Assembly: GCA_964016885.1 (NCBI GenBank) | Contig: OZ024742.1 | Location: forward strand, 267,592,001 to 267,656,000 | DNA: 64,000 nt | Direction: 5' to 3' | From: Eledone cirrhosa | Lineage: Eukaryota | Shown: one piece after another, positions 14,226 through 64,000 of the stretch | How the letters are laid out: each line of letters begins with the position of its first letter | Position numbering within the stretch: position 1 is the stretch's first letter | Made by a program: the position numbers and the translations under genes | Notes under the pieces: generated by a model | What the model was told of the DNA's origin: nothing | The model's database searches: none | What the model saw: only the letters and a program-made list of their open reading frames with translations

Positions 14226-14273
14226 AATAGCCGTCGAAACGGCTTGAGCTCTGCCGTCGGTGTCATACTCTTT

Positions 14274-14276
<3 letters not shown>
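14226..14276 (+). repeat. Short fragment of the U3A8-HHR pseudo-LTR family (3' half of the ribozyme)
   Basis: atagccgtcgaaacggcttgagctctgccgtcggtgtc matches 16526-16565 and 56387-56423. Confidence 0.75.
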
Positions 14277-14316
<40 letters not shown>

Positions 14317-14981
14317 TTAAATATATATATATATATACATATATACACTGTCATACACATGCACGTAGAAAAACACTCACACTCACGCGCACAAACACAC
14401 ACAGACGTGCACATTCACGTGCACACACACACACATACACGCATACGCACACACACACACACAAACAACGATTTGCGTCACTTAGGTGGGTTATTTAGAT
14501 GACTTTTTTAGAAATTTGAATTTCTTCTAATCGATACTAAATTCCCATTTTTTTTTATTGTAAAACTAACGATCAGATTTTCAGCGATTATTTAAGCTGC
14601 GCTGTTTTTCTGCTTATCAGTGTTAGTGTACATATTGCACAGAGAGTATAATGGGAGCCCAAATACTAGTATATATATTTTTTATTTCATTGGTTTGTAT
14701 GAGATAATTATCCGATCATCGCATGAAATATGTTATGCGAATTAATCATTTGTCTTGTAACATTTAATCAGACTAGTGTTCAGTTTACAGAAGAATGATG
14801 AAGCCTGTTATAAGTTGGTAGAAGTAACCCATTAATCAGTGTAATCTTATCCTGAGATCTACTATCTGAAAGTATAAATTTTCGTTTGACCCTCGAGCTG
14901 GAGTAAGAATTCATTGAACATCTCTTCGTACACGGAAAGCTTCCTCTTTCTCTCATTCTCTCTCTTTCTCCCCCCCCCCCC

Positions 14982-16288: not shown

Positions 16289-16466
16289 AGAAATAATAAT
16301 AAAACACACCCACTATTTGGTTTGAATTGGTTTTCGCTTCTGTATCTTTTATATCTCTATAGTTAATTTATCTGGTAATCATTGTTTATCGTTGATTGAC
16401 CAATGGTTAAAAATATCGATAGAAATATATATATATATATATATACATACATACATATATATATAT

Positions 16467-16742
16467 ATAGGAAAATGTTTGACCCCGACGGCAGAGCTCA
16501 AATCGTTTCGACGGCTATTTCTAGAAATAGCCGTCGAAACGGCATGAGTTCTGCCGTCGGGGTCATACATTTTCCTATTACCCACTCTACTTCCCGAATA
16601 CACCAGAGTACTCAATACTTAGGGTAGTAGAGTGGGTAATAAGAAAATGTTTGACCCCGACGGCAGAGCTCAAGCCGTTTCGACGGCTATCAGAAATAGC
16701 AGTCGAAACGGCTTGAGCTCTGCCGTCGGGGTCATACATTTT

Positions 16743-16748
<6 letters not shown>
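16467..16748. repeat. Four alternately oriented pseudo-LTR fragments forming nested palindromes
   Basis: Approx. (-)16467-16520, (+)16524-16590, (-)16623-16690, (+)16694-16748; same family as 55861-56435. Confidence 0.85.
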
Positions 16749-16792
<44 letters not shown>

Positions 16793-16795
<3 letters not shown>

Positions 16796-19443: not shown

Positions 19444-20086
19444 CACATACTTGTAAGTATCCATGTTTGTATAATTTTAAACAACAGTATCTATGTATTT
19501 GGCGAAGTGTAACCTAGAAAGCAGGGCATGCAGTCCAATCGCCATGGCGGAAAGTGGGCTGTGCAGCCTTACCATATTACCTCTAAATGACCCTCCCGGT
19601 CAAAGCAGCATGTAGTGTTATCTAGTGTGTGTGTGTGTGTGTTATGTTTTTATGTGTCTAAGATTTAGTAAGCAGCCACAATTCTGCTTGCTTCAACCGA
19701 CGCTGTCGTGTGTTTGTCTGTATGTGTGTGTGTGTGTGTTTTTATCTTTTTATGTGTCCACGGTTTAGCAAGCAGCTAACATTCTGCTTGCTTCATTCGA
19801 CGCTGTCGTGTGTTTGTGTGTATGTGTGTGTGTGTGTGTGTTATCTTTTTATGTGTCTACGGTTTAGCAAGCAGACAAAATTCTGTTTGTTTCAAACGAC
19901 GCAAATTGATCAACTCAATATTCTATAACACATGCACTGCATGCGTTGCATGCACGCACCCTTCGCCCCTGGTATGTACATATGAATAAGTATGTGTTAC
20001 TATAGGAGTCGATCGAGGCAGCAGTAGGGGTGGTGAGTGTGTAAGGGGTGGTTTACCTTGGGCTCGGTGTGGCGGGACTAGTGTCC

Positions 20087-21422
20087 CTATAGCTTGAGGA
20101 AGGTCCCTGCCCTGAGGTGTCTACATGTATTGAAGAAGTCGGTCCTGGGGTTTATTAGGCTGCTTCCACCGCTGAGTATCTCGAGGGTCTGGCTCAGACA
20201 TAGTTTGCAGATGCCAGATCCCCCTCTATCAGGTAGTACTTTCCTGATTTGGGACCAGGCCAGAGAGTATTGGGTCCTGTCCAGCTTGAGCTTCCAGATC
20301 AGTTCGGAAAGAGCCGTACTTTTCCTTTTGTCCTCCATATTAAAGCAATGGTTATGGTTATACCCTCTGTTTTTGAAGCTCGTTGATGTGGCTCCCATGT
20401 AAAGGTGCTCAGAGTTGGGTTTTTTTACTCTACATCCGAATATTAAGTCTTTCCTGAGGCATTCATTACTAAGAGGGCATTATGTGGGGGTTCTGCAGTT
20501 GCAGGAGGTGGCCAACCCCGAGTGCCTAACGTGGGGTTCCTGTTGTATATTATAGGGTGGTCTTCTTCTGGGCTCGGTGGGCGTCCCTGGGTTTGTTTGT
20601 CTTCACAGGGTGGGTACAGGGTCCACCCTTCCTTCCCTCAAACATAGCTCTGCTGGGTGCTTATATTGCCAGCTTCTGGTTGTGTGTAGTTTCTAAGTCT
20701 ACCCCTATTGATGCTAGCTATGTGCAGGGCTACGTTGCGCGTGGTAGAATACGAGAGCTTCTCAGCGTGTCTCTTGAGTATCTTGTATCTATGCTCCCTC
20801 GGGAGCATTTGTCTAGCGCTCTAAAGAATACCAGGATGTTCTTCTGGTCCGCTGAGTAGGGTGGGTTCTACCACGTTATTTTTCTATGTCTTTTCCTGAT
20901 GTGGGATGTTGGGGAGTTGGTGGGTTGCTAGTGGTTCCCGCATTGTTTCCTGCCCTTTGGGCGCTATATGGTTTGCCAGCTTCCCGGCACGTACCTGTGG
21001 GGTGGTTGTTACCCACGCTGGGGGATCTACAATGGTATGGTGCTCCATCTTTCCCGCTTCGTGTCTTGCGGTTGGGTGAGGCAGGCCCGGGGTGGTTAGT
21101 ATCACCCCTGAGACTGCTCCTCGTACTGGGTTTCCTTTTCGCTAATGTGGTGGTGTCGGGTTCATGGGATTTAGTGGTTTCCACTCTGCCTGTATTGTTA
21201 GGGTTCCCCCCTTCCGGATACCGTGGGTCGGGGGGTCCGATAGGCTATCCCTATCTTGGTGCCTCGGATTATATAGTTTGGCCGTGCTCCGTCTTATTTA
21301 GAGCTGCTTTATACTATTGTGCGTTGCTATCGAAGATCTCCTTATTGGCAGACAGGTTGGAGATCCTGTCCGAGACACTCTTGAATGTGGTGCTGTCGGG
21401 ATCATGGGGTTTAGTGGTTTCC

Positions 21423-22390: not shown

Positions 22391-23263
22391 GTGTCTATTA
22401 TATGTGTCTATATATATTACAATCAAGCGTTAGCTAGAGCAGGATATAGAGATAAAATTAAGTACATCGATAATAATAAGCAAACTAACCAAAATAATAA
22501 CAATTTTAATTACGGTAACAACATTAACAACTATAATAGAAAACATTACAATAATTCCAAAAGTCGAAAAAGAAATAGAACTAGAAATATATTATGGTTT
22601 TCCCGCCCTTTTTCACTAAATATTAAAACCCATATTGCTAAACTATTCTTTAATGCTCTTGACAAACGCTTCCCTAGAACACATAAATATCACTCAATTT
22701 TTAATAGACACACTATAAAATTAACTTACTCGTCCACCAAAAATTTAGCACAAAATATTAACAGAATTAATAATAGGAATTTAAAACCTAACCAAAATAC
22801 CAATAATAACCCAAACAATATTCAATTAAATAACTGTAACTGTAGAAATAAATCTAACTGTCCGTTAAATAACAACTGCTTAGCTAAAAATGTAGTGTAC
22901 AATTGTAATGTTAAAACTAATTTAAATTCTTTCAACTATGTTGGTTCCACCTCGACAGAATTTAAACTTCGCTTCAATAATCATAAGAATTCTTTCACAG
23001 ATCCAAACAAAAAATCCTCAACTTCGCTATCAAGCCTACTCTGGCACCTTAAACGAGATAATGTTAAATGTTCGATGTTTTGGAATATTGTCTCAAAAGG
23101 GATTCCTTTTAATTCCTCATTAGAGACTTGTGATCTTTGTGTAGAGGAAATATTCTTTATATTAAAGTCCAAAAATTCCCTTAATTTAAGGAGCAATTTA
23201 TTCAGTTGCTGCAGACATAGATTGAACTCAACATTTAAGTATAAATATAAATTTAAAATGTAG
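22391..23263 (+). CDS. PLE C-terminal region with GIY-YIG endonuclease (5'-truncated, probably Nematis-type)
   Basis: [10 protein letters not shown] thumb; [15 protein letters not shown] linker; [19 protein letters not shown]; CDLCVEE; LNLRS..CRH. The listed start codon is not the real one. The 3' UTR and pseudo-LTR run to ~24885. Confidence 0.88.
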
Positions 23264-49467: not shown

Positions 49468-50427
49468 AATAAAGAAACAAATTCTAGGAAAACTTACAGT
49501 AGAATAATTAATCATGACCATTCCAATAATTTTAATAAAAGACCTAGATACAAAAACATAATCTGGTATAATGCTCCTTTCTCCATCTCTATTAATAACA
49601 ATATTCCTAAATTATTTTTTAGTGCCTTAAATAAATGCTTCCCTCCCTCACATATCTATAGTAAAATATTTAACAAACACACCATCAAATTTTCGTATTC
49701 TACATCCTCCAATATTTCCAACATCATCTCTAAACACAACAACAAAATATTAAATACTAAATCTCTTCCATCCAATATTGAATTTCATAATAACAGTAAT
49801 AGTACTCCCGACGTCATTGTAAACCCTAGGCTAACTTCTGTAAACCCAAATACAACGTCAAACACAACTTCGCTAAATGTTCATAATCCAACTCTAAATC
49901 AAGAAACTATTATTCCTATTATTCCTATCGCAAACAACTTCTCCAATCCAATTCCTTCTATAGATAACACTAGATCACTCATTAATAATCTCTCTAATTG
50001 CAACTGCCGCATTAAAAATAAATGTCCTCTCAACAACCATTGCCTCGATAAAAACTTAATTTATGAATGTAAAATTATAACTAGCACCAATTCCTTCACC
50101 TATTTTGGCTCCACTTCCACCTCTTTTAAAGCTCGTCTCTATAATCATCATTCATCTTTCAAATACAAACTTAAAAGAACTAACACTGCTCTCTCAGAAC
50201 TTATATGGTCCTTAAAAGACAAAAACATTAAATATACCATCTTTTGGAAGAAGATTTCTTCTGCATCCTCATACTTGAACAGCTCCCTATCTAAAATCTG
50301 TAATCTCTGCCTAAATGAAAAATTTACCATTATCTCTAACCTAGATTCTATAATAAATAGACGCTCAGATTTGTTTTCTATCTGCCTGCATAAATTCCAT
50401 AGAACTTTTCACAAAGTATACAGTTAA
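49468..50427 (+). CDS. Start-less open frame: PLE linker and GIY-YIG endonuclease (not in ORF track)
   Basis: Hand translation shows no stop: NIIWYNAPFS..CNCRIKNKCPLNNHC..LIYEC..YFGSTSTSFKARLYNH..TALSELIWSLK..CNLCLNEK..INRRSDLFSICLH, TAA at 50425-50427. Confidence 0.85.
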   Translation, partial: NKETNSRKTYSRIINHDHSNNFNKRPRYKNIIWYNAPFSISINNNIPKLFFSALNKCFPPSHIYSKIFNKHTIKFSYSTSSNISNIISKHNNKILNTKSLPSNIEFHNNSNSTPDVIVNPRLTSVNPNTTSNTTSLNVHNPTLNQETIIPIIPIANNFSNPIPSIDNTRSLINNLSNCNCRIKNKCPLNNHCLDKNLIYECKIITSTNSFTYFGSTSTSFKARLYNHHSSFKYKLKRTNTALSELIWSLKDKNIKYTIFWKKISSASSYLNSSLSKICNLCLNEKFTIISNLDSIINRRSDLFSICLHKFHRTFHKVYS

Positions 50428-51430
50428 TATTCAATTCTTTATCAATTTAGAATCTTTTCTCAAAGGCACATATACATACACCTCTTTAAAATATACCCAT
50501 CTACCTTACTTTAAAGGGCATTATACACTGTATAATACTCGTTTACTCATTACCCTCATTCTATCTTCTCGTAAAATAATAACATTTGTTTTTGACATTT
50601 TGAATATTCATCCGCAATCATTATTATTTTTTCTCTCTATCATAAATCTTTTTAATCTCAATTTCATCCTTAATTTATTATTATTTTTTTCTCCCCATCA
50701 ACGAACTCATTATTAATACACATTAACTCTTTATTCGCACATATTATCAATTCAATATACAAACTTTAACTTCACATTATTTTTCTCAAATCCTTCTACA
50801 CACAAACCTTAACAATTTTTCTCTTCGCTAATTTTGAAATTGCCACAATACATACATTTCTTCTTTTGACGTTAGAATATTCACCCACAATTATTATTTT
50901 TTTCTCTCTATCTTCATACATAATTTCCCTTCGTTAATTTTCAAATTCCTTTAATTTATACATTATCTTCCAACGGTTCCCAACCTCTCTATATTAAAAC
51001 AATATATCTTTTTCTCAGTTATAAAAACAATCTCTTTCTCTCTATCACCCATCTCTCCCTCTCCACCTTCACTCTCATCTCCTCCCCCTTTTTTTCATCC
51101 TTTCCACCCCCCCTCCCTAAATAAAATATTTTTTCCTCGCACATATCCTCCCTTCGTTAATTTTCAAATTTTTTAATTTATCCAGTATCTTCCAACGGTT
51201 TTCAACCCCTCTATGTAAAAAATATATCTCCTCTCAGTTATAAAAACTATCTCTTTCTCTCTATCACCCATCTCTCCCTCACATCTCCTTCCCTTTTCAT
51301 CCTTCCCCCTCCCCTCTCTAAATAAAATATTTTTCCCAATATCACACATCAATCTAAAACCACTTTTCATATGTGTATTTAAAACTGCACTATCCACAAG
51401 TGTTTTTTAGCCTTCATATCATGTTCTCCT

Positions 51431-51499
51431 GTTTTATCTGATGAAAACACAAATATTATTGCTTGATAATGTTTGTTTTTGAAATGCGCATAATAAAAT
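51431..51499 (+). ncRNA. Type I minimal hammerhead ribozyme in PLE pseudo-LTR
   Basis: Stem I gttttat/ataaaat; CUGAUGA 51438-51444; ~15-bp stem II with GCUU loop; GAAA 51481; palindromic AUGCGCAU; UA site at 51492. Confidence 0.9.
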
Positions 51500-51601
51500 A
51501 TATGGAACTCCTTTAACCATCTTTTGATCTTATATTATATAATATATATATCATATATATATATAATATATATATATATAATATATATATCATATATATA
51601 T

Positions 51602-51633
<32 letters not shown>

Positions 51634-51667
51634 ATATATATATATATAATATATATATATATAATAT

Positions 51668-51724
<57 letters not shown>

Positions 51725-51789
51725 TATAATATATATATATATATCATATATATATATATATATATACATATATATACATATATATATAA

Positions 51790-51836
<47 letters not shown>

Positions 51837-51955
51837 TATATATATATATATATATATCATATATATATATCATATATATATATATATATATATCATATAT
51901 ATATATATCATATATATATATATATATCATATATATATATATCATATATATATAT

Positions 51956-52166
<211 letters not shown>

Positions 52167-52193
52167 CATATATATATACATATATATATATAT

Positions 52194-52282
<89 letters not shown>

Positions 52283-52944
52283 GAATTAGTATATCTACAC
52301 AAAACACGCACACACACAAGCACACAAATAAACATACGTATCTTTACTTTCTTTATTCAATAGAAAATCTGAATTCTGACACCCCAGCGAACTAACCATA
52401 TTCACTGAACCAGAACAATTCTCCCTTCCAATTTCTCTTCATTATTATCTTTTACTTGTCATAAAATTCTCTAAAAAGGCTACAGAATAGATTTCCAAAT
52501 AAGGGCGCGAAAATTTAATTGAAACTTGTTCACGTGACAGCAATAATTTCATTTATAACCAATCAAATTATGTTTATTAAAATAAAGCCTCCGTGAGCCC
52601 CTTTTTTAAGTAAAAAGAAATTCAAATATTTAAAAACAACCTGTGATACCCCCCTCCCTAGTTTGAAGAACTTTGTAACGCGAACTGGCGCGACATTTAT
52701 TATAATTATTGACCTACCAATCAAATTACTTCTCGAAAAACCTGGCATTTCGAGCCACTTTTTCCATATAAAACAAGTAACATTCAGAGACCAACCAGAT
52801 GTGACAAAAAATACAGACCCCTCATCTCAACTCTACTTTTGAAAAGCAGTAGAAATACGAAACCGGTAAAGGAACCAAATAAATATATATATTTTTTTAG
52901 AAATAAGACTCCAGTTGCATTTTCGATTTCATGTTTTTTTTCTT

Positions 52945-53003
<59 letters not shown>

Positions 53004-53037
53004 TATAAAATATATATAATATGTATATCATATATAT

Positions 53038-53086
<49 letters not shown>

Positions 53087-53109
53087 TATAATATGTATAT
53101 CATATATAT

Positions 53110-53152
<43 letters not shown>

Positions 53153-53175
53153 TATATATATAAAATATACATATA

Positions 53176-54470
53176 TATAAGTGCCCACCTAAATATATTC
53201 TTACATGAATATATATTAGGCTTCTACATAAATTGGAAACGTTCTCCCAACTTGTAGAAAACTTATAATGAAACAATTGTTTGGAAAGAGATATACTTTA
53301 ACTTTAATTATATCTCATAAAATAATACAACTGGTTTTTCCACATTATACATATTGTTAGCATCCCAAACACTAAAATTGGGTTTATATTTAAATATAAC
53401 CTAATGTTTTTTGAGTGAGATGGTTACCAGTCAAAGTTTAGTTTTAAACTATCTCTGTTATCGTATTAAATATTTACTCTTGATTGGCCAGAAGTGTTTA
53501 TTTCCAGGTACCTTATGAATTTGACTTTCCGTATTTATTACTGTTGTGAAATATTGTGGCTTTTTTTGGTTGTAACTTCTCTGATTTTTAGCCTAAGAAA
53601 ATATATATATATGCCTACGTATATAATTACATGCATATACTTATTTATTTTCTTTTATTAATTGAGTTCTTTACACGAGGAATTAATATTGGTTTTGAAA
53701 TAACTAATTAACCCGCGTGTGTTTTATATTTTACTCTTAATTCGGCCGGAGAATTATATTCCCATTTGCCCTTTATAGCATAACTTTCTGCATTTACTGC
53801 GGTTATGAGAAGCGGTTCTTATTCGGGTACAACTTCTGATTTAGCCTAAGAAAATATCTATATGCGTGTGTAATTTATACAAGCATATATTTATTTTTTT
53901 ATTTTCAATTGATTTCTTAAACACGTTGGATTGATAATGTTTTCAAAAAACTAATTAACCCGCGTGTATATTATTTTTTTCCCTCATTTCGTGTATCGTG
54001 GGTAGTCTGCCCTTCCCGCTTCGTGTCACTATGATACTTCCCCAGCCAAAAACTGCTGGAATTTCAAATTTGGCGGTCATTCGAGGCGAGAGAGAGTAAC
54101 TTTACGGACACGATTTTTGACAGCGGTAAGAAATTATTTTCTTATATCAAAGTTTAACGGGCTTCCACTGATGATTTATAAGTGCCCATATAAATATATT
54201 CTTACATGAATATATATTAGGCTTCTACATAAACTGGAAACATTCTCCCAACTTGTAGAAAACTTATAATGAAACAATTGTTTGGAAAGAGATATACTTT
54301 AACTTTAATTATATCTCATAAAATAATACAACTGGTTTTTCCACATTATACATATTTTTAGCACCCCAAACACTAAAATTGGGTTTATATTTAAATATAA
54401 CCTAATGTTTGTTGAGGGAGATGGTTACCAGTCAGAGTTTTGTTTTAAACTATCTCTGTTATTGTATTAA
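53176..54470 (+). mobile_element. Non-coding element with 294-bp terminal direct repeats and an HHR-like motif
   Basis: 53176-53469 matches 54177-54470; internal ~250-bp diverged duplication; CTGATGA at 54168, long hairpin, GAAAC at 54237; (TA)n on both flanks. Confidence 0.7.
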
Positions 54471-54526
54471 TTATATATATATATAATATATATATATGTA
54501 TATATATATATATAAAATATATATAT

Positions 54527-54579
<53 letters not shown>

Positions 54580-54794
54580 AAATATATATCATATATATAT
54601 ATATATATATAAAATATATATCATATATATATATATTATATATAAAATATATATCATATATATATATATTATATATAAAATATATATCATATATATATAT
54701 ATTATATATCATATATATATCATATATATATATATATATCATATATATATATATCATATATATATATATATATATATATCATATATATATATAT

Positions 54795-54862
<68 letters not shown>

Positions 54863-54879
54863 TATATATATATATATAT

Positions 54880-54993
<114 letters not shown>

Positions 54994-55039
54994 GATATAA
55001 AATATATATAATATATATATATATATTTATAGATATATA

Positions 55040-55079
<40 letters not shown>

Positions 55080-55115
55080 GATATATAATATATAATATAT
55101 ATATATATATATATA

Positions 55116-55159
<44 letters not shown>

Positions 55160-55205
55160 ATATTAAAATACAAATATTAATTAAATTGACGTTCTTTTGA
55201 TCAAT

Positions 55206-55264
55206 TACATTTTATTATACATATTTCGGATGTACAACAATACGTCCTCATCAGACAAAATATA
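55206..55264 (-). ncRNA. Type I minimal hammerhead ribozyme (solo pseudo-LTR)
   Basis: Minus: tatattttgt-CUGAUGA-ggacgta ttgttg tacatcc-GAAA-tatgta-UA-ataaaatgta. Confidence 0.87.
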
Positions 55265-55701
55265 ATTATACATGACATACCCTGAGATGTTAAATGGTTA
55301 ATATTTAATCAAGGTGGTGATTAACCCAAGAAAAATTTAACATTTATACCCTAATAATAAGAAGATGCGAAAACGTAATAAATTCAATAGAGAAAGTGCG
55401 AGTAAGAAAAACGTTGCTTAATGTAACAATGATATAGATATTAAGATGTGTAGTACTACAATTTATGAATAAAGGGTGTAATATGCTGAAGGAGATTTAT
55501 TTTTGCCGAAAGTTAAACGGGTAATTTAGAAAATATTTAATTTATGGTATTATAGGGGAAAGATTCAAGATTTTGGATTTTTAAAAAACAAATATATATA
55601 TATATAAGAAATATATGTATATATATAATATCTATAATATATATATATAAAGCGATGAAATGCCTAGGACGGTTGGAAGGCCACTGATGAAGGACTTACT
55701 T

Positions 55702-55774
<73 letters not shown>

Positions 55775-55775
55775 C

Positions 55776-55810
<35 letters not shown>

Positions 55811-55895
55811 TATATAACGAAGGAAATGTGGTAAGGAACCAGGTGGACCATAACGCACCAAAGTACTCAATACTTGGGGTAGTAGAGTGGGTAAT

Positions 55896-56435
55896 AGGAA
55901 CCAGTAAGACCCCGACGGCTGAGCTCAAGCCGTTTCGACGGCTAATTTTGGACTAAATGAACATTTTTCCTGGTATTTAAATAGCCGATCTTCTCAAGGG
56001 GTAATTCCATATATGGTCAAAGTGATTGTCAAAAGTCAGTGGTAATTCTGTGAGTGCAAATTAGTAGGGGAGATGGTGGCTAAACCTGCCAGTAGGAGAA
56101 AGAGGGGAAGGGGTGGAGTAGACCCAATCAAGCGTTGGTAGTGCCAGCTACAGCTGGGCATGAGGAATCATGCCCAGCTGTAGCTGGCACTACCAACGCT
56201 TGATTGGGTCTACTCCACCCCTTCCCCTCTTTCTCCTACTGGCAGGTTTAGCCACCATCTCCCCTACTAATTTGCACTCACAGAATTACCACTGACTTTT
56301 GACAATCACTTTGACCATATATGGAATTACCCCTTGAGAAGATCGGCTATTTAAATACCAGGATAAATTTTCATTTAGTCCAGAATTAGCCGTCGAAACG
56401 GCTTGAGCTCAGCCGTCAGGGTCTTACTGGTTCCT
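55896..56435. repeat. 540-bp near-perfect palindrome (268-bp arms, GGAA loop)
   Basis: Arms 55896-56163 and 56168-56435 differ at only a few positions. Confidence 0.95.
55909..56002 (-). ncRNA. Hammerhead ribozyme with U3:A8 variant core (mirror copy on plus strand at 56329-56422)
   Basis: acccc-UUGAGAA-ga(t)cggcta...tagccgtc-GAAA-cggc ttgagctca gccg-UC-ggggt. Confidence 0.78.
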
Positions 56436-56849
56436 GGGCACCATGTGCATGTCTGGCTAAGGGTCACTTCTTTATTATCGGACGGAACCCGTTGATAAAG
56501 CTCTTCCGGTCCAGTCCTTCTCTAGAAGTCTTATATATTTTTTATGTGGGCTGATAGTGAATGGATTAAGTAATTGCAGAAACCCAAGAAGCTAGATTTA
56601 ACACCCTTCTAGCGGGTCCGGGTAAGTTTTTTACATTCATTTAAATTATTGATATTTTATTTGAGTGACCCGAATCTTCCTGGTCGTTCTTTTTCGGCTG
56701 TACGGGTGATTTTAGGCATAATCTCTATGTGTTGGTAATTTAACGATGGTTATAGCTCTGATTTATCCAAATTATTGAGCCCTCTGCCACTCATATCGGA
56801 TATTGTTTATCGTTAATTCATGAGCTGATTTTCCGATACTCGATTATTC

Positions 56850-56984
<135 letters not shown>

Positions 56985-57116
56985 TATATATATATACATA
57001 ATATATATATATATATATACATAATATATATATATATATATATACATAATATATATATATATATATATACATAATATATATATATATATATACATAATAT
57101 ATATATATATATATAC

Positions 57117-57154
<38 letters not shown>

Positions 57155-57230
57155 ATATATATATATATATATATATACATAATATATATATATATATATA
57201 TATATACATAATATATATATATATATATAC

Positions 57231-57376
<146 letters not shown>

Positions 57377-57402
57377 CATAATATATATATATATGTATAT
57401 AC

Positions 57403-57456
<54 letters not shown>

Positions 57457-57458
57457 TG

Positions 57459-57509
57459 AGATTCTACAGGACTAGAACTGTTTCATTCTTTAGAAATCAT
57501 CAGGAATCT
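57459..57509 (-). ncRNA. Hammerhead motif, same family as 28672-28808
   Basis: agattc-CUGAUGA-tttctaaagaat-GAAA-cag ttctagtc ctg-UA-gaatct; abuts (TA)n. Confidence 0.75.
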
Positions 57510-58056
57510 GGGTATCAAAAAATAAGTATGGTATTTATAGGTCTCTACAAGTGGTAGGAGAGGGTGGGGAGTGGGATGGGTGTAGGTCATTGGTTGACAG
57601 AAAAGGGAATTCATTAAAAGCTAATTCTACAAAGCTATAGTTTATTTTTATTTATTTTTGTTTTTAGAGTAACAAAGGCAGACAGAATTCTATAAACAGG
57701 TTCAGGATGGTATGCCATTCCTTGTTATTAAGTTTCTCTTAAGCTAACAGGTGTCTATAAGATCAGTGGGGGGTCAGTCATGGTAGATAGATTTAAAGGA
57801 AAGGGAGATTCTTTAAAAGCTAAATTCATTAAGGTTCTATTAAGTGACAAAGGTTTAGAGAATTCTGTAGACAAATTCAGAATATTGAGAGCATATCTTA
57901 CAATTATCTTCAAATTTCTCATAAACTATTCAACTATATGCCAGAAATCAACAGACACATTCACAAAACACACTCACTCACACACTCGCGCGCAACCATA
58001 AACACACATACACATACACATATACACACATAAAAACACACACACACATATAAATA

Positions 58057-58137
<81 letters not shown>

Positions 58138-58173
58138 ACATATACACACAAACACAAATACACACATAAATAC

Positions 58174-58240
<67 letters not shown>

Positions 58241-58311
58241 TATATATATATAAAAAAATATATATATACATATATATATATACACACACGCATACACATA
58301 CACTCATATAC

Positions 58312-58344
<33 letters not shown>

Positions 58345-58461
58345 TATATATACATATATAAGGAAACATTGAACGGGAACAAAACAGAACATATATATAT
58401 ACACACACATACACCATACATACATATATTTATATATAGAGATACACCATTCATACATATA

Positions 58462-58505
<44 letters not shown>

Positions 58506-58574
58506 TACATACACATACACATACAAATACATATATACATATATATATACATATATATATATACATATATATAC

Positions 58575-58621
<47 letters not shown>

Positions 58622-58962
58622 TACATATATACATATATATACATATATATACACACACACATACATATACACATACATACACATACATATACACACACAC
58701 ACATACACACACATACATATATATAAATATATATATATATTTCGTTTCTGAATTTGTTTAGCAAGATTCTTTATCTGAAATCGTGTGTTGTAACCGATAT
58801 TGTTATACTTTGGGAGGGTCATGTTGCCAATAAGAAACACACGCACCAGTTGCTTTCACTTCAATTTATTATATATTTATAAATTTATAAATTTACAAAT
58901 CTACAAATTTATAAATTTCTGGTTGGTTGGTTGGTTCCACAACCAGATAGTTGTTTATATAT

Positions 58963-59007
58963 AGTCATAGTCCTTTCGTCACACACTCTGTGACCTCTTC
59001 AGTGACT
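58963..59007 (-). ncRNA. Minimal hammerhead motif in the 3' pseudo-LTR of the 59216-61260 PLE
   Basis: agtca-CUGAAGA-g-gtcaca gagtg tgtgac-GAAA-ggac-UA-tgact; one extra nucleotide before stem II. Confidence 0.72.
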
Positions 59008-59215
59008 GGGGATTCCTTTCTTTGTTTCTGTGCCTTTCCTTTCTTGTGTCCTACGCCATTTTGTTTCTGTGTGTGTGTTGTGTGCTCAGTTTGCGCATGC
59101 GCCACATCCGGGTGTCTGTGTGTGTTTGTGTTCATTTATCTATTTGTTTATTTATTTATTTACATGTTGTTGGTTGGTTGTTTGTTCTATGTGTGTGTGT
59201 GTTTTCATTTTGTCC

Positions 59216-61260
59216 TTAATTGTAAGTTGTGATGTTGCTGTTCCACTCATATTTTCTATTTAATTTTGGTTGTAATTCTTTTATGTTTACTGCCTCTGTA
59301 ATTTGTCTAAACATTGCATCTTTTCTGTGTGTAGATTCTATTTTTATTTCTATGTTCTCTAATTTACCCTTGTGTTCTATCTTAGCATGTTGGTAGAGTA
59401 CAGATGATTCTTTATTATCTTGAAGGTCTCGCCAGTGTTCATTTATCCGTTCCCCTATACTACGAGCTGTCTCACCTATGTACACTCTATTTTTGTTTCT
59501 ACATTGTCCTTCAGTACATCTTATGCTATACACTACATTTCTAGTTTTACAGTTAATATGGGGGGCTTATTTTACAGGTTATACATTTCTTATCTATACA
59601 TGAGGGTCTTTGGAACGGGTATGTCTTGCTAATAAGTGTTCTTACGGAGGTACCTGGTCTTTCTACTATCTTAATATTGAGTTTATGTTTATTTAGGGCC
59701 CTTCTAAATTTGTAGGCTAGTTCGCCTCTAGGGGTTGTACCGATTAACATTACACTCTGGAATTTGTTGCTATCATACCATAGGTTTATTCTATTGGCCT
59801 TGTTCCTAGTTCTTTCTATTCTATTCCAAAATTTGCTCCTATTTATGTCATTATTTACCATTTTTTCCCATTTGGTTCTGGCTCCACTATACACTCTGAT
59901 TCTATCTCTCTGATTGTAGCCAGAGAACTGCATACGGTGGATGAAGTGTTGTATGTGTCTCTCTAGTTCTTCGGGGTTGCACATGCGGGACACATTTCTC
60001 ATCACCCGTACCAAATCCGCAATCAGTATGTTGATTTTGGTATGGTCCGAAATGGCCGAGTTTCGGTGGATCAGATGTTTGGAAGTCATAGGTTTGGCAT
60101 AATGGGAATGGAGGATTTGTTTTTGGTTGTTAATGGTATCTAACCAGAGCTCTGTGTCTAGTACAGGTAATCGATGGTTGGGGTGTCTACTTGGGTAGTC
60201 TATAGTAACTCTAATGCTCTGGTGGATGGAGTTTGCTATTTGCTGGATGCTTTCCATTGTATTTTTCTCTAGTTCCTGACTGTTCTGTAGTGGGGGTGTC
60301 TTAACTACGATGTTTATATCATCTACGTAGCGGGAGTACATTATCAGGGTTAAGCTGTCTTCTAATTGTTCTTTAAGTTTAAGTTTAAGTCTACTGTCCC
60401 ACCATACCATGAATAAGTTAGCTATTTCGCCTGCAATGCTAACACCAATGGCTGCTCCTTCCTCTTGGGCATATGTTTTTCCATTAAATTTGAACATATG
60501 TTCCTTAAGGGTTAATTTTATGCTGGCCCCTACCGCATGTGCAATCATTTTCTTCAGTTCAACGTGGTTTTCGGGTGTCCGTATGGCTATGGTCCACCCG
60601 TTCCATCTATCTGTGTGGGTTTTCTTGGCCATTGAGGTAATGGTAGGTACTCTCCCTCTTGTTAGTCTAGTAGGGCACAGGTTGCTAAGGTCATAAGTTT
60701 CTAGGTAACTATTACTTTGGGTAAGCTTAAGTAGAAGTCCCAGCTCACTGGTATCAATCCCACGGAACTCAACCTGGCTCTCGCTGATCATTTCTACGCA
60801 TTTCTCCACAGCAAAATCCACGTCAATAGATGGATACAGGGACACAACATCCATACTGCCTATTATGCAGTTTGTTAGGTCCCCAGATCGGTTACTCACG
60901 CCGTTTCTGCTGAGGAGGTCCTCCGTGCTGTCACATACTTCTGGGGACATCTCAATGATGGGGCGTATGATCAGGGAGAGGAAGTAGGAAAGTCTGTAGT
61001 TACTAGCAATGTTAGCTCCACAGACTGGCCGTGTTGGTGGTCCCGCGACAGGGTCACAGCCCGTTTTATGGTCTTTTCGAAGCCCATACAACGCCGTCAC
61101 GTCATTGTTCCAAGCCTGGAAGTTGTTGGCAGTCCTTTTGTTGGGGTGCATTATATTCGTCCACATCACCATATGGGCATTGAGGGCTTTTTCTCTATCC
61201 TCATGCTCCTGTGGTGTTACCTCTCTTGTGTTAGTGATGTGGGGTTGCATTGCCTGGATG
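59216..61260 (-). mobile_element. 5'-truncated PLE: RT plus C-terminal GIY-YIG, with one frameshift
   Basis: [46 protein letters not shown]; CIDKKCITC linker; VVYSIRC..VYIGETARSIGERINEH..QITEAVNI..LNRKYEW. The N-terminal part of the listed ORF is microsatellite. Confidence 0.92.
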
Positions 61261-61552
61261 TATATATATACACACTCACACACGTATACGTACACACATC
61301 TATATATATATATATATATACACATATATACACATATATATATATATACACATATATATATACATATATATATATATATACACAAACACACACAAATATA
61401 TATATATATATATATACATACATATATATATATACATACATACATATATATATATACATACATATATATATATACACATACACACATACATACAAATATA
61501 CACACATACACACACACATATATAAACATATATACATACATATATACATACA

Positions 61553-61584
<32 letters not shown>

Positions 61585-62050
61585 CATATATAAACATATA
61601 TACATACATATATACATACATATATATATATATACATATATATATATACATATATACATATATATACATATATATACATATATATATATACATATACATA
61701 TATATATATATATACACATATATACATATATATATACACACATACACATGCACACATACACACATACACATATATATATATACATACATATATACATATA
61801 TATATATATACATATATATATACATATATACATATATATACGCATATATACACACACACATATATAAACATGTACATACATATATATATATATACACATA
61901 TACATACACAGATATATGCATATATATATACGCATATATACATACACATATACGCACATATACACACATATATACATATATATATACACGCATACACACA
62001 TACACACACACATATATATATATACACACTCACACACATATATATATATA

Positions 62051-64000
62051 TAACTTTGAATAACTTTGAAATGTTTTGGCCAGTATTGGCCCAGGCCATG
62101 TCTAACTTAATAGCACCACCTGGCGAAGTCTTTCAATTCAGGATTTGGGCACCATGGCCCATTCGAGAAGAGAATTACTGTTTGCGGAGACATATCCGGG
62201 TGTGGGTGGTTTGTCCGGGATTACTTGGAGGAATTTGTCAAAAGACTTCTTGAATTTTGTGTGGTCAGTTTCTGTTTTGACGTCTCCTGGTGTGATGTTG
62301 AAGAGAGCAGGACCGATTGAGGTGAAATAATTGTGCCGTATTGTTGTTATGAGTTGCGATTTAGATTTTTGAATGGGACGGATAGCACGGGGCCCAAGCC
62401 TTGGGTGTATCTTGAAGGCGATGCCAACATCATTTGGGCAGTGATGATGGAACATTTTCCACATCATGCAGATAATATAACGCTCACGGCGACGTTGGAG
62501 TGAGTAAAGTTTCAGGTTTTCTAATCGACCCCAGTAGTCAAGGTCTGACATGCCATCTATCTTTTTCGTGATTGCCCTTTGAGGAGCTTCAAGTTTCATG
62601 ATACTTTGTTTCGTGTGGGGAGACCACAGTGGACAACAGTATTCAAGGTGTGGTCGGGCGAAAGTAGAGAAGAGAAGGATAATGGTGCGGGAATCTCTCG
62701 ACTGGAAGGTTCTGAGGATCCAGGAACACATTCTGCGGGCCATGTCAACTTTGCTGCTTATATGCGTGGTCCAGCTTATGTTGCTGTCCACGGTTACTCC
62801 CAAGTCTCTGATGTTGTTAGATGCCACGAGAGTTTCCCCGGAGGGAAGGGAGTACGGGAGTTTCAGAGCATCCTCTTTTCCAAAGTGGATCAGTTCGAAT
62901 TTGTCTTCGTTCAGTAACATGTTGTTCTTTTCTGCCCAATGGGTAACAGCCAGTAGGTCTGACTGAAGGCTTATCCGGTCATCCACGCCATTGATGACCT
63001 TTTGGAGCTTGGAATCATCAGCGAAAATTTTAATGTTGCTGTGTTTGATGATGTCAGTGATGTCATTAATATAGATGATGAAGAGAAGTGGGCCCAACAC
63101 AGTGCCTTGTGGGACCCCACTACTGACTTTGGCTGGGCTTGATTTGACTCCCTCAACTACAACATGTTGGGTTCTGTTTGACAGGAAGCTCTTGATCCAC
63201 TGCAGCAGCTTTCCAGTGACACCAATATTGGACAGCTTTCGCAGTAGAATGTTATGATCAACCCTGGCAAAGGCCTTGCTGAAATCAAGGTAGATAACAT
63301 CAGTGTTGGAACCCTCTCCCAAGGTTCTCAAAATGTCATCAAAGTGATGCAGTAGCTGCGTCAGGCAATCCCTTCCATTACGGAATCCATGCTGGTTGGA
63401 GTTCAGCATATTGTTACTCTCAAGGAAGTGGGTCATTCGCGATCTCACCACTCGCTCAAATACCTTAATGATATGAGAGGTGAGTGAGATTGGACGGTAA
63501 TTCACGGCAAGGGATTTGTTTCCCTTTTTGAAAACTGGGACAACAGACTGGGATAGAAGGTTTTCTGGCACATATCCAGCATCCAGTGAGTTCCGCCACA
63601 GATTGGTAAGAGGAGATGCAAGTTGGTGTTGACACGCCTTCAAGACACAAGCAGGGAACCTATCGGGACCTACTGCTGAATTATGCTTGATTTCCTTTAT
63701 TGCCGCCAAGGCATCAGGGGCGCCAAACGTTATGTCCGATAAGGTGTAATGGGGAGTAACATCGCCGATACAGCCCAGATCGGCCATATCAGGATTGCTG
63801 AAAACAGAGCAGTATTGTTTCTGCAGTATCTCACCCATGGTTTTAGCATTGTCTTGAAGAGTGCCATTTTCATCAATTAGAGGGCCAACAGTAGAGCCAG
63901 TGATTTTGTGTTTTTTTGCAAATGAAAAGAACACTTTGGGATTGAGTTTGATCTTCTCAATGGCCCAGGCCTCTTCAGCTCTTCTCTGATTGTTGATGAG
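62051..64000 (-). mobile_element. CR1-group LINE, RT ORF open to the window edge
   Basis: ORF 62138..63934: NYRPISLTSHIIKVFER, QHGFR, YLDFSKAF, SGVPQGTVLGPLLF, FADD, LYSLQRRRER; (TTCAAAGTTA)2 tail. Confidence 0.93.

Follow-up and report, generated by a model that had tools for sequence, protein, structure and literature searches.

Inverted 3' ends of a Penelope-like element with U3-A8 hammerhead motifs in Eledone cirrhosa

RESULTS

A palindrome made of two element ends

The window, i.e., the whole stretch of 64,000 nucleotides analyzed here, lies inside a (TA)n-rich genome of 3.0 Gb. It contains a palindrome whose two arms of 268 bp (55896-56163 and 56168-56435) flank a center of 4 nt (GGAA) and differ at four sites (55913/56418, 55948/56383, 55962/56369, and 55967/56364). 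Pairing between the arms ends at 55895/56436, and the left arm runs 78 nt past the palindrome, a stretch that corresponds to the "tail" of the element described below (Table 1). The 540-bp palindrome with a hammerhead motif on both strands, reported in the initial annotation, is thus present in the assembly. RAD read ends at 55947 presumably reflect a restriction site (AATT).

No contig or read bridges the center of the palindrome, as might be the case for an assembly or fold-back artifact. However, four sites differ between the arms, the flanks are unlike each other, and the asymmetry of the outer ends follows the family rule (see below), which is not expected of a fold-back artifact. Near-perfect pairs are known elsewhere (in L105, the stops lie at q3021/q3022), and many such junctions occur in independent contigs. 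We consider an artifact extremely improbable.

Table 1. Features at the palindrome locus. Positions are those of the window; q numbers are family coordinates, with q1 at 56002 on the minus strand.
Feature	Position	Strand	Basis
(TA)n microsatellite, insertion target at the left (tailed) end	55706..55816	.	Sequence; nearly all loci have (TA)n next to the family ends
78-nt PLE "tail," long end, q110-q192; only on the left arm	55817..55895	-	Family long/short rule
Stretch from stem I to the short-end position (q94-q109); putative second reverse-transcription start site	55896..55909	-	Short ends at q109; reading after the available parts of PMC11167929
Type I hammerhead motif, left arm	55910..56001	-	Predicted fold, monomer stem pair probabilities 0.94-0.99
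Stem I, left arm	56001-55998 / 55913-55910	-	Type I hammerhead motif
Core UUGAGAA, left arm	55997-55991	-	Type I hammerhead motif
Stem II, left arm	55990-55982 / 55944-55937	-	Type I hammerhead motif
GAAA, left arm	55936-55933	-	Type I hammerhead motif
Stem III with GAGCUC palindrome, left arm	55933-55915	-	Type I hammerhead motif
Predicted cleavage, left arm	between 55914 and 55913	-	Type I hammerhead motif
TTAGT in loop II, A = q49 = 55954; putative transcription start site	55952..55956	-	Invariant across subfamilies; mini-copy 5' ends pile up at q45-55
5'-truncated pseudo-LTR (3' UTR) upstream of the left-arm hammerhead	56002..56165	-	97% identity to full-length copy L043
Head-to-head junction of two 5'-truncated copies	56164..56167	.	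Arm ends at most 2 nt apart; 56166-56167 unlike family
5'-truncated pseudo-LTR, right arm	56168..56329	+	Family match
Hammerhead motif, right arm; core 56334-56340, C17 = 56417	56330..56421	+	Private G1.1A at 56418 breaks the pair beside the cleavage site
Right-arm short end, untailed	56422..56435	+	Family match stops at q107
5'-truncated copy of an unrelated repeat (~624-bp unit), ending in (TA)n	56434..56850	+	Joined via 2-nt microhomology

Several other repeats lie in and near the window. The unrelated repeat joined to the right arm (best 40 of 2,978 candidates scored) is abundant, is also seen in L032-L042, has a 624-bp tandem unit in L036, and ends in (TA)n. It contains CUGAUGA with no obvious completed hammerhead, adjoins the present family again in L035 and L039, and may be a non-autonomous derivative of a Penelope-like element (PLE). 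At 55680-55705 (+), CUGAUGA and a short stem start are cut off by the (TA)n tract that received the element; L037 has a fragment like it ahead of (TA)n. A canonical minimal type I hammerhead, probably another PLE's, lies at 55216-55254 (-), with CUGAUGA, GAAA, a 5-bp stem I, a 3-bp stem II with a long loop, and a near-palindromic short stem III. Three mini-insertions of the present family, from an older subfamily, were seen at 14228-14332, 16413-16594, and 16601-16793, two of which are mini-palindromes truncated in loop II. Fragments of ORFs from other PLEs, at 20081-20915 (-), 22415-23233 (+), and 49546-50409 (+), are 34 to 47% identical to the family protein. Finally, the regions 59216-61200 (-) and 62138-64000 (-) were labeled by eye as PLE-like reverse transcriptase (RT) plus GIY-YIG of another type and as a long LINE-like RT frame.

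The arms carry a type I hammerhead motif

Read on the minus strand, the left arm contains stem I (CCCC/GGGG), the core UUGAGAA, a G10.1-C11.1 pair, a loop II of 37 nt, GAAA, a stem III of 5 to 6 bp with UGAGCUCA, and a GUC site with C17 at 55914. The core, stems I to III, GAAA, and GUC were therefore read in this copy as annotated, and the loop II of ~37 nt and the self-complementary loop III (a GAGCUC palindrome) were found as described. The annotation had further opposed a fully paired minus copy to a plus copy with G replaced by A at position 1.1. Indeed, the minus copy is fully paired, and the plus copy has A at 56418, a CpG-to-CpA type of change that we saw at 6 of 412 sites (fetched loci, overlaps included).

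The motif shows the sequence elements of type I hammerheads, namely GAAA, an NUH site, and a core N3-U4-G5-A6-N7-N8-A9 whose positions 3 and 8 form a Watson-Crick pair. The left copy can form the three helices with G10.1-C11.1 and A15.1-U16.1, with a computed pair probability of 0.94 for stem III, and the 1.1-2.1 pair of the right copy is broken. The predicted fold of the right copy is poor (stem I probability, 0.16; alternative hairpin, 0.35). Because stems II and III share sequence, an inactive alternative fold also arises, computed at 6% in the left copy and 35% in the right one. Folding z-scores of -0.87 and -1.28 were unremarkable, with no significant excess stability. A strict descriptor, composed after the motif was seen, matched once in the window (the minus copy) and never in 150 simulated 64-kb sequences (order-2 Markov), each scanned on both strands. 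An Rfam scan of 50000-64000 (E ≤ 5) gave no hammerhead match and only microsatellite or hairpin miRNA noise; this says little about the palindrome, because the canonical hammerhead at 55216-55254 was missed as well.

We also compared the motif to minimal hammerheads that act as obligate dimers, in which helix III is absent or has 1 to 2 bp with a palindromic loop and an extra nucleotide lies between A9 and G10.1. Here, stem III has 5 to 6 bp, and G10.1 directly follows UUGAGAA. A stem III dimer is favorable in silico (-30.7 versus 2 x -7.1 kcal/mol), and GAGCUC in loop III is the majority sequence in all groups compared. Overall, the motif has the sequence and predicted structure features of a type I hammerhead and falls outside the minimal obligate-dimer definition.

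The motif belongs to an EN+ Penelope-like element

The arms match a large repeat family (best 40 of 745 candidates scored). In related full-length loci, an ORF with RT and GIY-YIG lies upstream of the motif in the same sense, in good agreement with the annotated position of the motif in a PLE pseudo-LTR (pLTR). A protein search gave 117 scored matches, 40 of them with open frames of 770 to 819 codons, and the ORF has 1,545 homologues at E ≤ 1e-30. The full-length unit measures ~3.53 kb, tandem copies are spaced by ~3.53 kb, and the ORF is a 784-codon frame encoding ~717 amino acids from the first ATG, at q280. The end of the element's 3' UTR holds the hammerhead, in the sense direction. Cleavage is predicted at q89/q90, and the copies have two fixed 3' ends, q109 (short) and q192 (tailed), which lie 20 and 103 nt beyond this site.

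As in EN+ PLEs, a single ORF combines RT with a C-terminal GIY-YIG endonuclease (FDIESYY, YRDDG, and YIG..R..H..E..N). Partial-tandem and inverted pLTRs, 5' truncation, and a tail at one end, all features of PLEs, were found too. Furthermore, the protein has Hydra-type motifs: HSDKTG (DKT), CNCPDRSIC (the CxCX5C linker), no CCHH, CNLC..CKH (CxxC and CxH flanking E and N), and one Cys in the GIY-YIG core, with the RWK of the Hydra diagnostics reading RWR. A Neptune-type label was rejected, as the diagnostics of the Hydra clade fit. Because the ORF had no match in Pfam or PDB, the PLE/Hydra assignment is motif based (motifs read by eye plus structure). Our reading is that of a young, autonomous PLE that targets (TA)n and has protein motifs of the Hydra clade.

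At C1:437.2 Mb and C1:91.48 Mb, at least 4 full-length units follow each other head to tail, their 5' UTR segments being identical; these arrays are candidate source loci. L044 and L045, ~0.75 Mb apart on C1, share the same PLE insertion and the same Ty3/gypsy-like flank, suggesting a segmental duplication. Sequence words of the family also occur in read runs of 14 coded organisms (A-N), and contigs of organism B have the older-type core.

Most inverted pairs have one tailed and one untailed end

Among the 53 divergent pairs in the fetched loci, whose ends were classed by regular expression, 46 were long/short, 2 long/long, 1 short/short, and 4 unresolved; the "short" end of L069 stops before the usual point. 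Of the 49 resolved inverted pairs, 46 thus combine a tailed with an untailed end, and the pair in the window obeys this rule, being tailed on the left and untailed on the right. Several young pairs showed no arm difference over 1,400 nt spanning 67 polymorphic sites. The idea of two different source RNAs per pair was unsupported, as the young arms of a pair carry common subfamily alleles (same source subfamily).

In the Anolis PLE, the tail is set by two RT start sites, nicking and extension take place on both target strands, and the hammerhead is protein assisted and dispensable for TPRT, as stated in the available parts of PMC11167929. Inverted 5'-truncated PLE copies with a tail at one end are described in the accessible text of PMC8557442. 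Since one tailed and one untailed arm fit the two-start-site data from Anolis, we infer twin priming. A protein dimer would nick both target strands, and reverse transcription would start at two sites, q109 and q192, on uncleaved RNA, each strand using one of them. The two cDNAs would then be joined at their 5'-truncated ends, in the present case at nearly the same point, leaving a perfect palindrome.

In our opinion, it is quite probable that the locus consists of two 5'-truncated head-to-head 3' ends of an autonomous PLE, likely from one insertion that primed both (TA)n strands, with U3-A8 hammerhead motifs that are predicted to cut after GUC, probably weakly or with the assistance of protein, and that are not needed every time the element inserts. 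The palindrome is a usual by-product of insertion, at an ordinary locus.

The annotation had also proposed that a read-through transcript would form a 268-bp double-stranded RNA. In agreement with this, the modeled duplex greatly exceeds the ribozyme fold in stability (-537 versus -23 kcal/mol). With the 5' ends of the arms joined to each other, read-through from either side would make the antisense arm first. The ribozyme would thereby be sequestered in any read-through transcript, and its working context would be the tandem full-length transcript rather than the dead palindrome copy. Given the computed stability of the duplex and the matching siRNAs that Penelope inverted repeats yield in transgenic Drosophila, as reported in the accessible part of PMC3681739, the locus might be a functional hairpin-RNA or siRNA gene silencing the family. 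However, the structure is a routine insertion product (the 53 divergent pairs of the fetched loci, and mini-palindromes in the tens of thousands), its arm divergence of 1.6% is as expected for its age (subfamily pooled, 0.87%), and the putative promoters of the element point outward. We regard such a silencing gene as very unlikely.

The U3-A8 core is conserved in the family

An exact pattern of the core region allowing Y3, N7, and R8 matched 6,874 times in the genome: 5,154 matches had U3-A8, 1,689 had C3·A8, and 31 had G8 (10 C3-G8 and 21 U3·G8, scattered). The U3-A8 motif is thus conserved in thousands of copies. However, direct covariation between C3-G8 and U3-A8 was not seen in the family, G8 being sporadic, and a large C3·A8 subfamily has a 3:8 pair that is not Watson-Crick. 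Among the first 100 of the matches listed, N7 was any of the four bases and position 8 was A only; as N7 takes any base, the alignment register is fixed. Among the first 100 C3 matches listed, 95 had G7.

Young copies in 60 loci selected by RT similarity had UUGAGAA in 126 of 129 motifs and a G·U wobble in stem III in 121 of 129. In the sister family, which is older, ~35% diverged here, and endowed with a different loop II, U3-A8 was present in 81 of 87 matches.

Covariation was analyzed on 22 selected copies, i.e., on few changes in two related families. Three pairs of stem II were changed on both sides between the family and the sister family, this stem is 2 to 3 pairs longer as judged by covariation, and stems I and III were invariant or showed wobbles. 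RNAalifold found all three stems unprompted. Of all cells, 91% paired, compared to 28 to 47% in slid controls; the number of doubly changed pairs was not above chance, as 481 of 500 shuffles reached it.

Five loci (L001, L002, L009, L019, and L053) carry the same two loop II changes (q36 and q41) together, on one arm only and in different subfamily backgrounds. This is due in part to query selection, and gene conversion, templated mutation, or polishing errors may also be involved. A-to-I editing at q55, considered for A/G differences between arms, was rejected as query selection, A55 being below the polymorphism threshold among the RT-selected young copies.

An excursion to a mismatched core pair

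A tree computed from ORF DNA, with 38 rows and 994 columns and one sister-family copy as the root, formed a ladder of old U3-A8 copies, then 14 C3·A8 copies, and then a young U3-A8 clade (99/96) that takes in currently intact elements. The 14 C3·A8 copies span at least 7 successive nodes (6 starred). Their monophyly was rejected (p-AU 1.5e-6; 14 versus 23 rows) in a test that left out L265, an independent C3 copy; L199 is absent from the 38-row tree. In smaller tests, 7 rows again led to rejection (p-AU 0.0045), and the 4 longest rows by themselves did not (p-AU 0.34). The tree requires two changes at position 3 and six at N7, and A8, UGA, GAAA, and GUC are fixed on it. Divergence between arms gives a matching order of ages, being 0.87% in the youngest class (19 pairs), 3.4% for C3·A8 (8 pairs), and 8.6% in the sister family (3 pairs), and the old U3 pairs, which are few, have an overlapping range of 1.2 to 5.7%.

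The order of copies on the tree indicates that the master lineage kept spreading with great success during the time its 3:8 pair was mismatched, and that it regained U3 afterwards. Such an excursion implies either that cleavage is dispensable or weakly selected or that a C·A pair or a slipped C3-G7 register keeps activity. G8A strongly lowers hammerhead cleavage, and a literature search on the activity of G8A or N7-deleted hammerheads returned nothing usable. Selection on position 3 is not proven, because U to C, where a run of C ends, and C to U both arise easily by mutation.

The motif might also be hammerhead shaped and catalytically dead, and kept for its overlap with the promoter and the region of RT binding and initiation. 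In line with this, 1,689 exact-match C3·A8 copies were amplified across these nodes, the cleavage site is upstream of the two RT start sites, and no pile-up of 5' ends was seen at q90. Moreover, C3G and G8C, which mismatch the 3:8 pair, abolish the Anolis PLE hammerhead and leave insertion in vitro unaffected (PMC11167929, available parts), and Naiad PLEs thrive without hammerheads (PMC8557442, accessible text). However, position 3 went back to U, restoring the pair, A8, UGA, GAAA, and GUC stayed fixed while N7 changed six times, stem II covaries, and one copy (L103) starts within 1 nt of the cleavage site. On balance, we consider a dead motif unlikely.

Most half-copies stop inside loop II

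Exact matches numbered 54,367 for the 3' half of the motif (q61-82), 27,951 for q49-71, and 6,874 for the 5' half (q3-23), with patterns that differ in degeneracy. We placed the ends of 56 half-copies by x-drop extension in 40 regions taken from the first matches listed, minus those with a known complete core. Of these, 49 ended at q45-55, 3 at q57-61, and 3 at q35-43, and 1 was complete. In the sister family, 7 of 20 copies ended at q48-49. TTAGT (A = q49) is the sole conserved run in loop II, with the same majority letters in the young, old, and sister sets. We take TTAGTY to resemble the initiator consensus.

Since most 3'-half copies stop at the invariant TTAGTY and not at the cleavage site, transcription may start inside the ribozyme. 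The 5' end of the element RNA would then be the initiator-like TTAGTY in loop II, and the mini-copies would be run-off cDNAs. In Penelope, the promoter and start site lie in the pLTR, according to the available parts of PMC2377424.

The near-full-length copies behave differently from what a simple linear-mRNA model predicts: 49 of 62 read through the upstream hammerhead into the upstream pLTR, and only 1 of 62 ends at q45-55. This calls for templates that are circular or multimeric, unless the stop has a different cause. The pile-up could thus stem from RT stalling, RNA breakage, or microhomology joining beside the adjoining self-complementary stretch AGCCGU-CGAA-ACGGCU, and, in addition to the near-full-length copies, the spread of ends over q45-61 and the short homologies often present at junctions speak for this. 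Against it, the concentration of 49 of 56 ends at q45-55 leaves only 4 further upstream, the sister family ends at q48-49 in 7 of 20 copies despite its different loop II sequence, TTAGT is the only conserved run, and the exact counts drop toward the 5' half. We consider stalling, breakage, or joining a real possibility, though somewhat less than an even one.

A start at the cleavage site was seen in 1 of 62 near-full-length copies (L103), which is not significant. In vivo cleavage could not be deduced from 5' ends either (1 of 13 ends within q2-q240, not significant), and a cap-derived extra G at q49 ends was confounded by microhomology.

DISCUSSION

U3-A8 cores, opposite-strand hammerhead pairs, and inverted-repeat siRNAs are already published for Penelope elements, going by the accessible parts of the reports. 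The PLE-derived motifs of Schistosoma include ~1,300 U3-A8 matches, with opposite-strand pairs 100 to 700 bp apart, and a passage of the supplement contains UUGAAAAA (Cervera and de la Pena 2014, PMC4209133, available parts). A natural U3/A8 core covariation, stated to be active in vitro, was described by Perreault et al. (2011, PMC3088659, available parts). The initial view of an overlooked ribozyme family is therefore overstated. The report of Perreault et al. has the same compensatory pair, and its available text has no amplified C3·A8 mismatch lineage.

The Schistosoma Cercyon hammerheads are clearly similar to ours, as far as the accessible parts of PMC4209133 go: they share the type I topology, U3-A8, G10.1-C11.1, a short helix I, a long helix II, the palindromic loop 3, the pLTR location, and dual opposite-strand motifs 100 to 700 bp apart. 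However, loop II has ~37 nt here instead of 4 to 9, the extra nucleotide between A9 and G10.1 is missing, and the copies form a young, homogeneous family whose ORFs are intact. Stem III is also stable here (5 to 6 bp), so that the monomer can fold, unlike the Cercyon motifs.

EN+ PLEs of the Hydra clade (Craig et al. 2021, PMC8557442, accessible text) have in common with this family DKT, CxCX5C, CxxC and CxH around E/N, no CCHH, (TA)n targeting, tandem and inverted pLTRs, and a tail at one end. They differ in RWK (RWR here), a unit generally below 3 kb (3.53 kb here), a tail of 30 to 40 nt (78 to 83 nt here), and hammerheads stated to be canonical (a U3-A8 core with a long loop II here). Three family-specific motif strings had no match in the available supplement of that paper.

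PAc, the Poseidon element of Anolis carolinensis (Frangieh et al. 2024, PMC11167929, available parts), likewise has two RT start sites that define the tail, nicks and extends both strands at AT-rich DNA as proposed here, and carries its hammerhead upstream of the start sites, where it is not needed for insertion. It belongs to a different clade, and its ORF begins inside the hammerhead, whereas ours begins ~190 nt past the cleavage site. Strict one-long/one-short pairing and a loop II pile-up of 5' ends were not found in the accessible text on PAc.

In the mostly non-subscription literature that we searched, the C3·A8 excursion, the strict long/short pairing, and a transcription start in loop II were not found. 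PLE hammerhead variants are reportedly the subject of Lunse et al. 2016, which may bear on novelty.

A start in loop II, if real, would leave a half-ribozyme at the mRNA 5' end. Pairing along the long covarying stem II with the 5' half present at the RNA's own 3' end would complete it in trans. Double cleavage and ligation would yield a unit-length circle, which could be the template of the partial tandems, seamless as they are (49 of the 62 long copies show read-through), and transcripts of solo 3' ends would give only strong-stop cDNAs, the ~47,000 mini-palindrome arms. The passage from U3 to C3·A8 and back to U3 would then be a natural fitness test, in which a mismatched or N7-slipped C3-G7 core was tolerated for a long period and then repaired. 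This scheme is speculative, and we think it quite unlikely.

The role of PLE hammerheads and the regeneration of pLTRs are stated open questions (PMC8557442 and PMC2377424, available parts). The feature reported here is real. Its locus is unexceptional and its core variant was already known; what is added, observations open to test, comes from the family. A CUGANGA search that limits loop II to short lengths overlooks thousands of motifs in this one genome. Tens of thousands of truncated copies map the two RT start sites and the likely RNA 5' end at base resolution. Since the family is young, with dozens of intact near-identical ORFs and a natural ladder of core alleles, the need for cleavage is directly testable. 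Overall, the value lies in the family and not in the single palindrome, and with the family it can be tested if cutting is needed in PLE hammerheads and at which point the transcription of PLEs starts.
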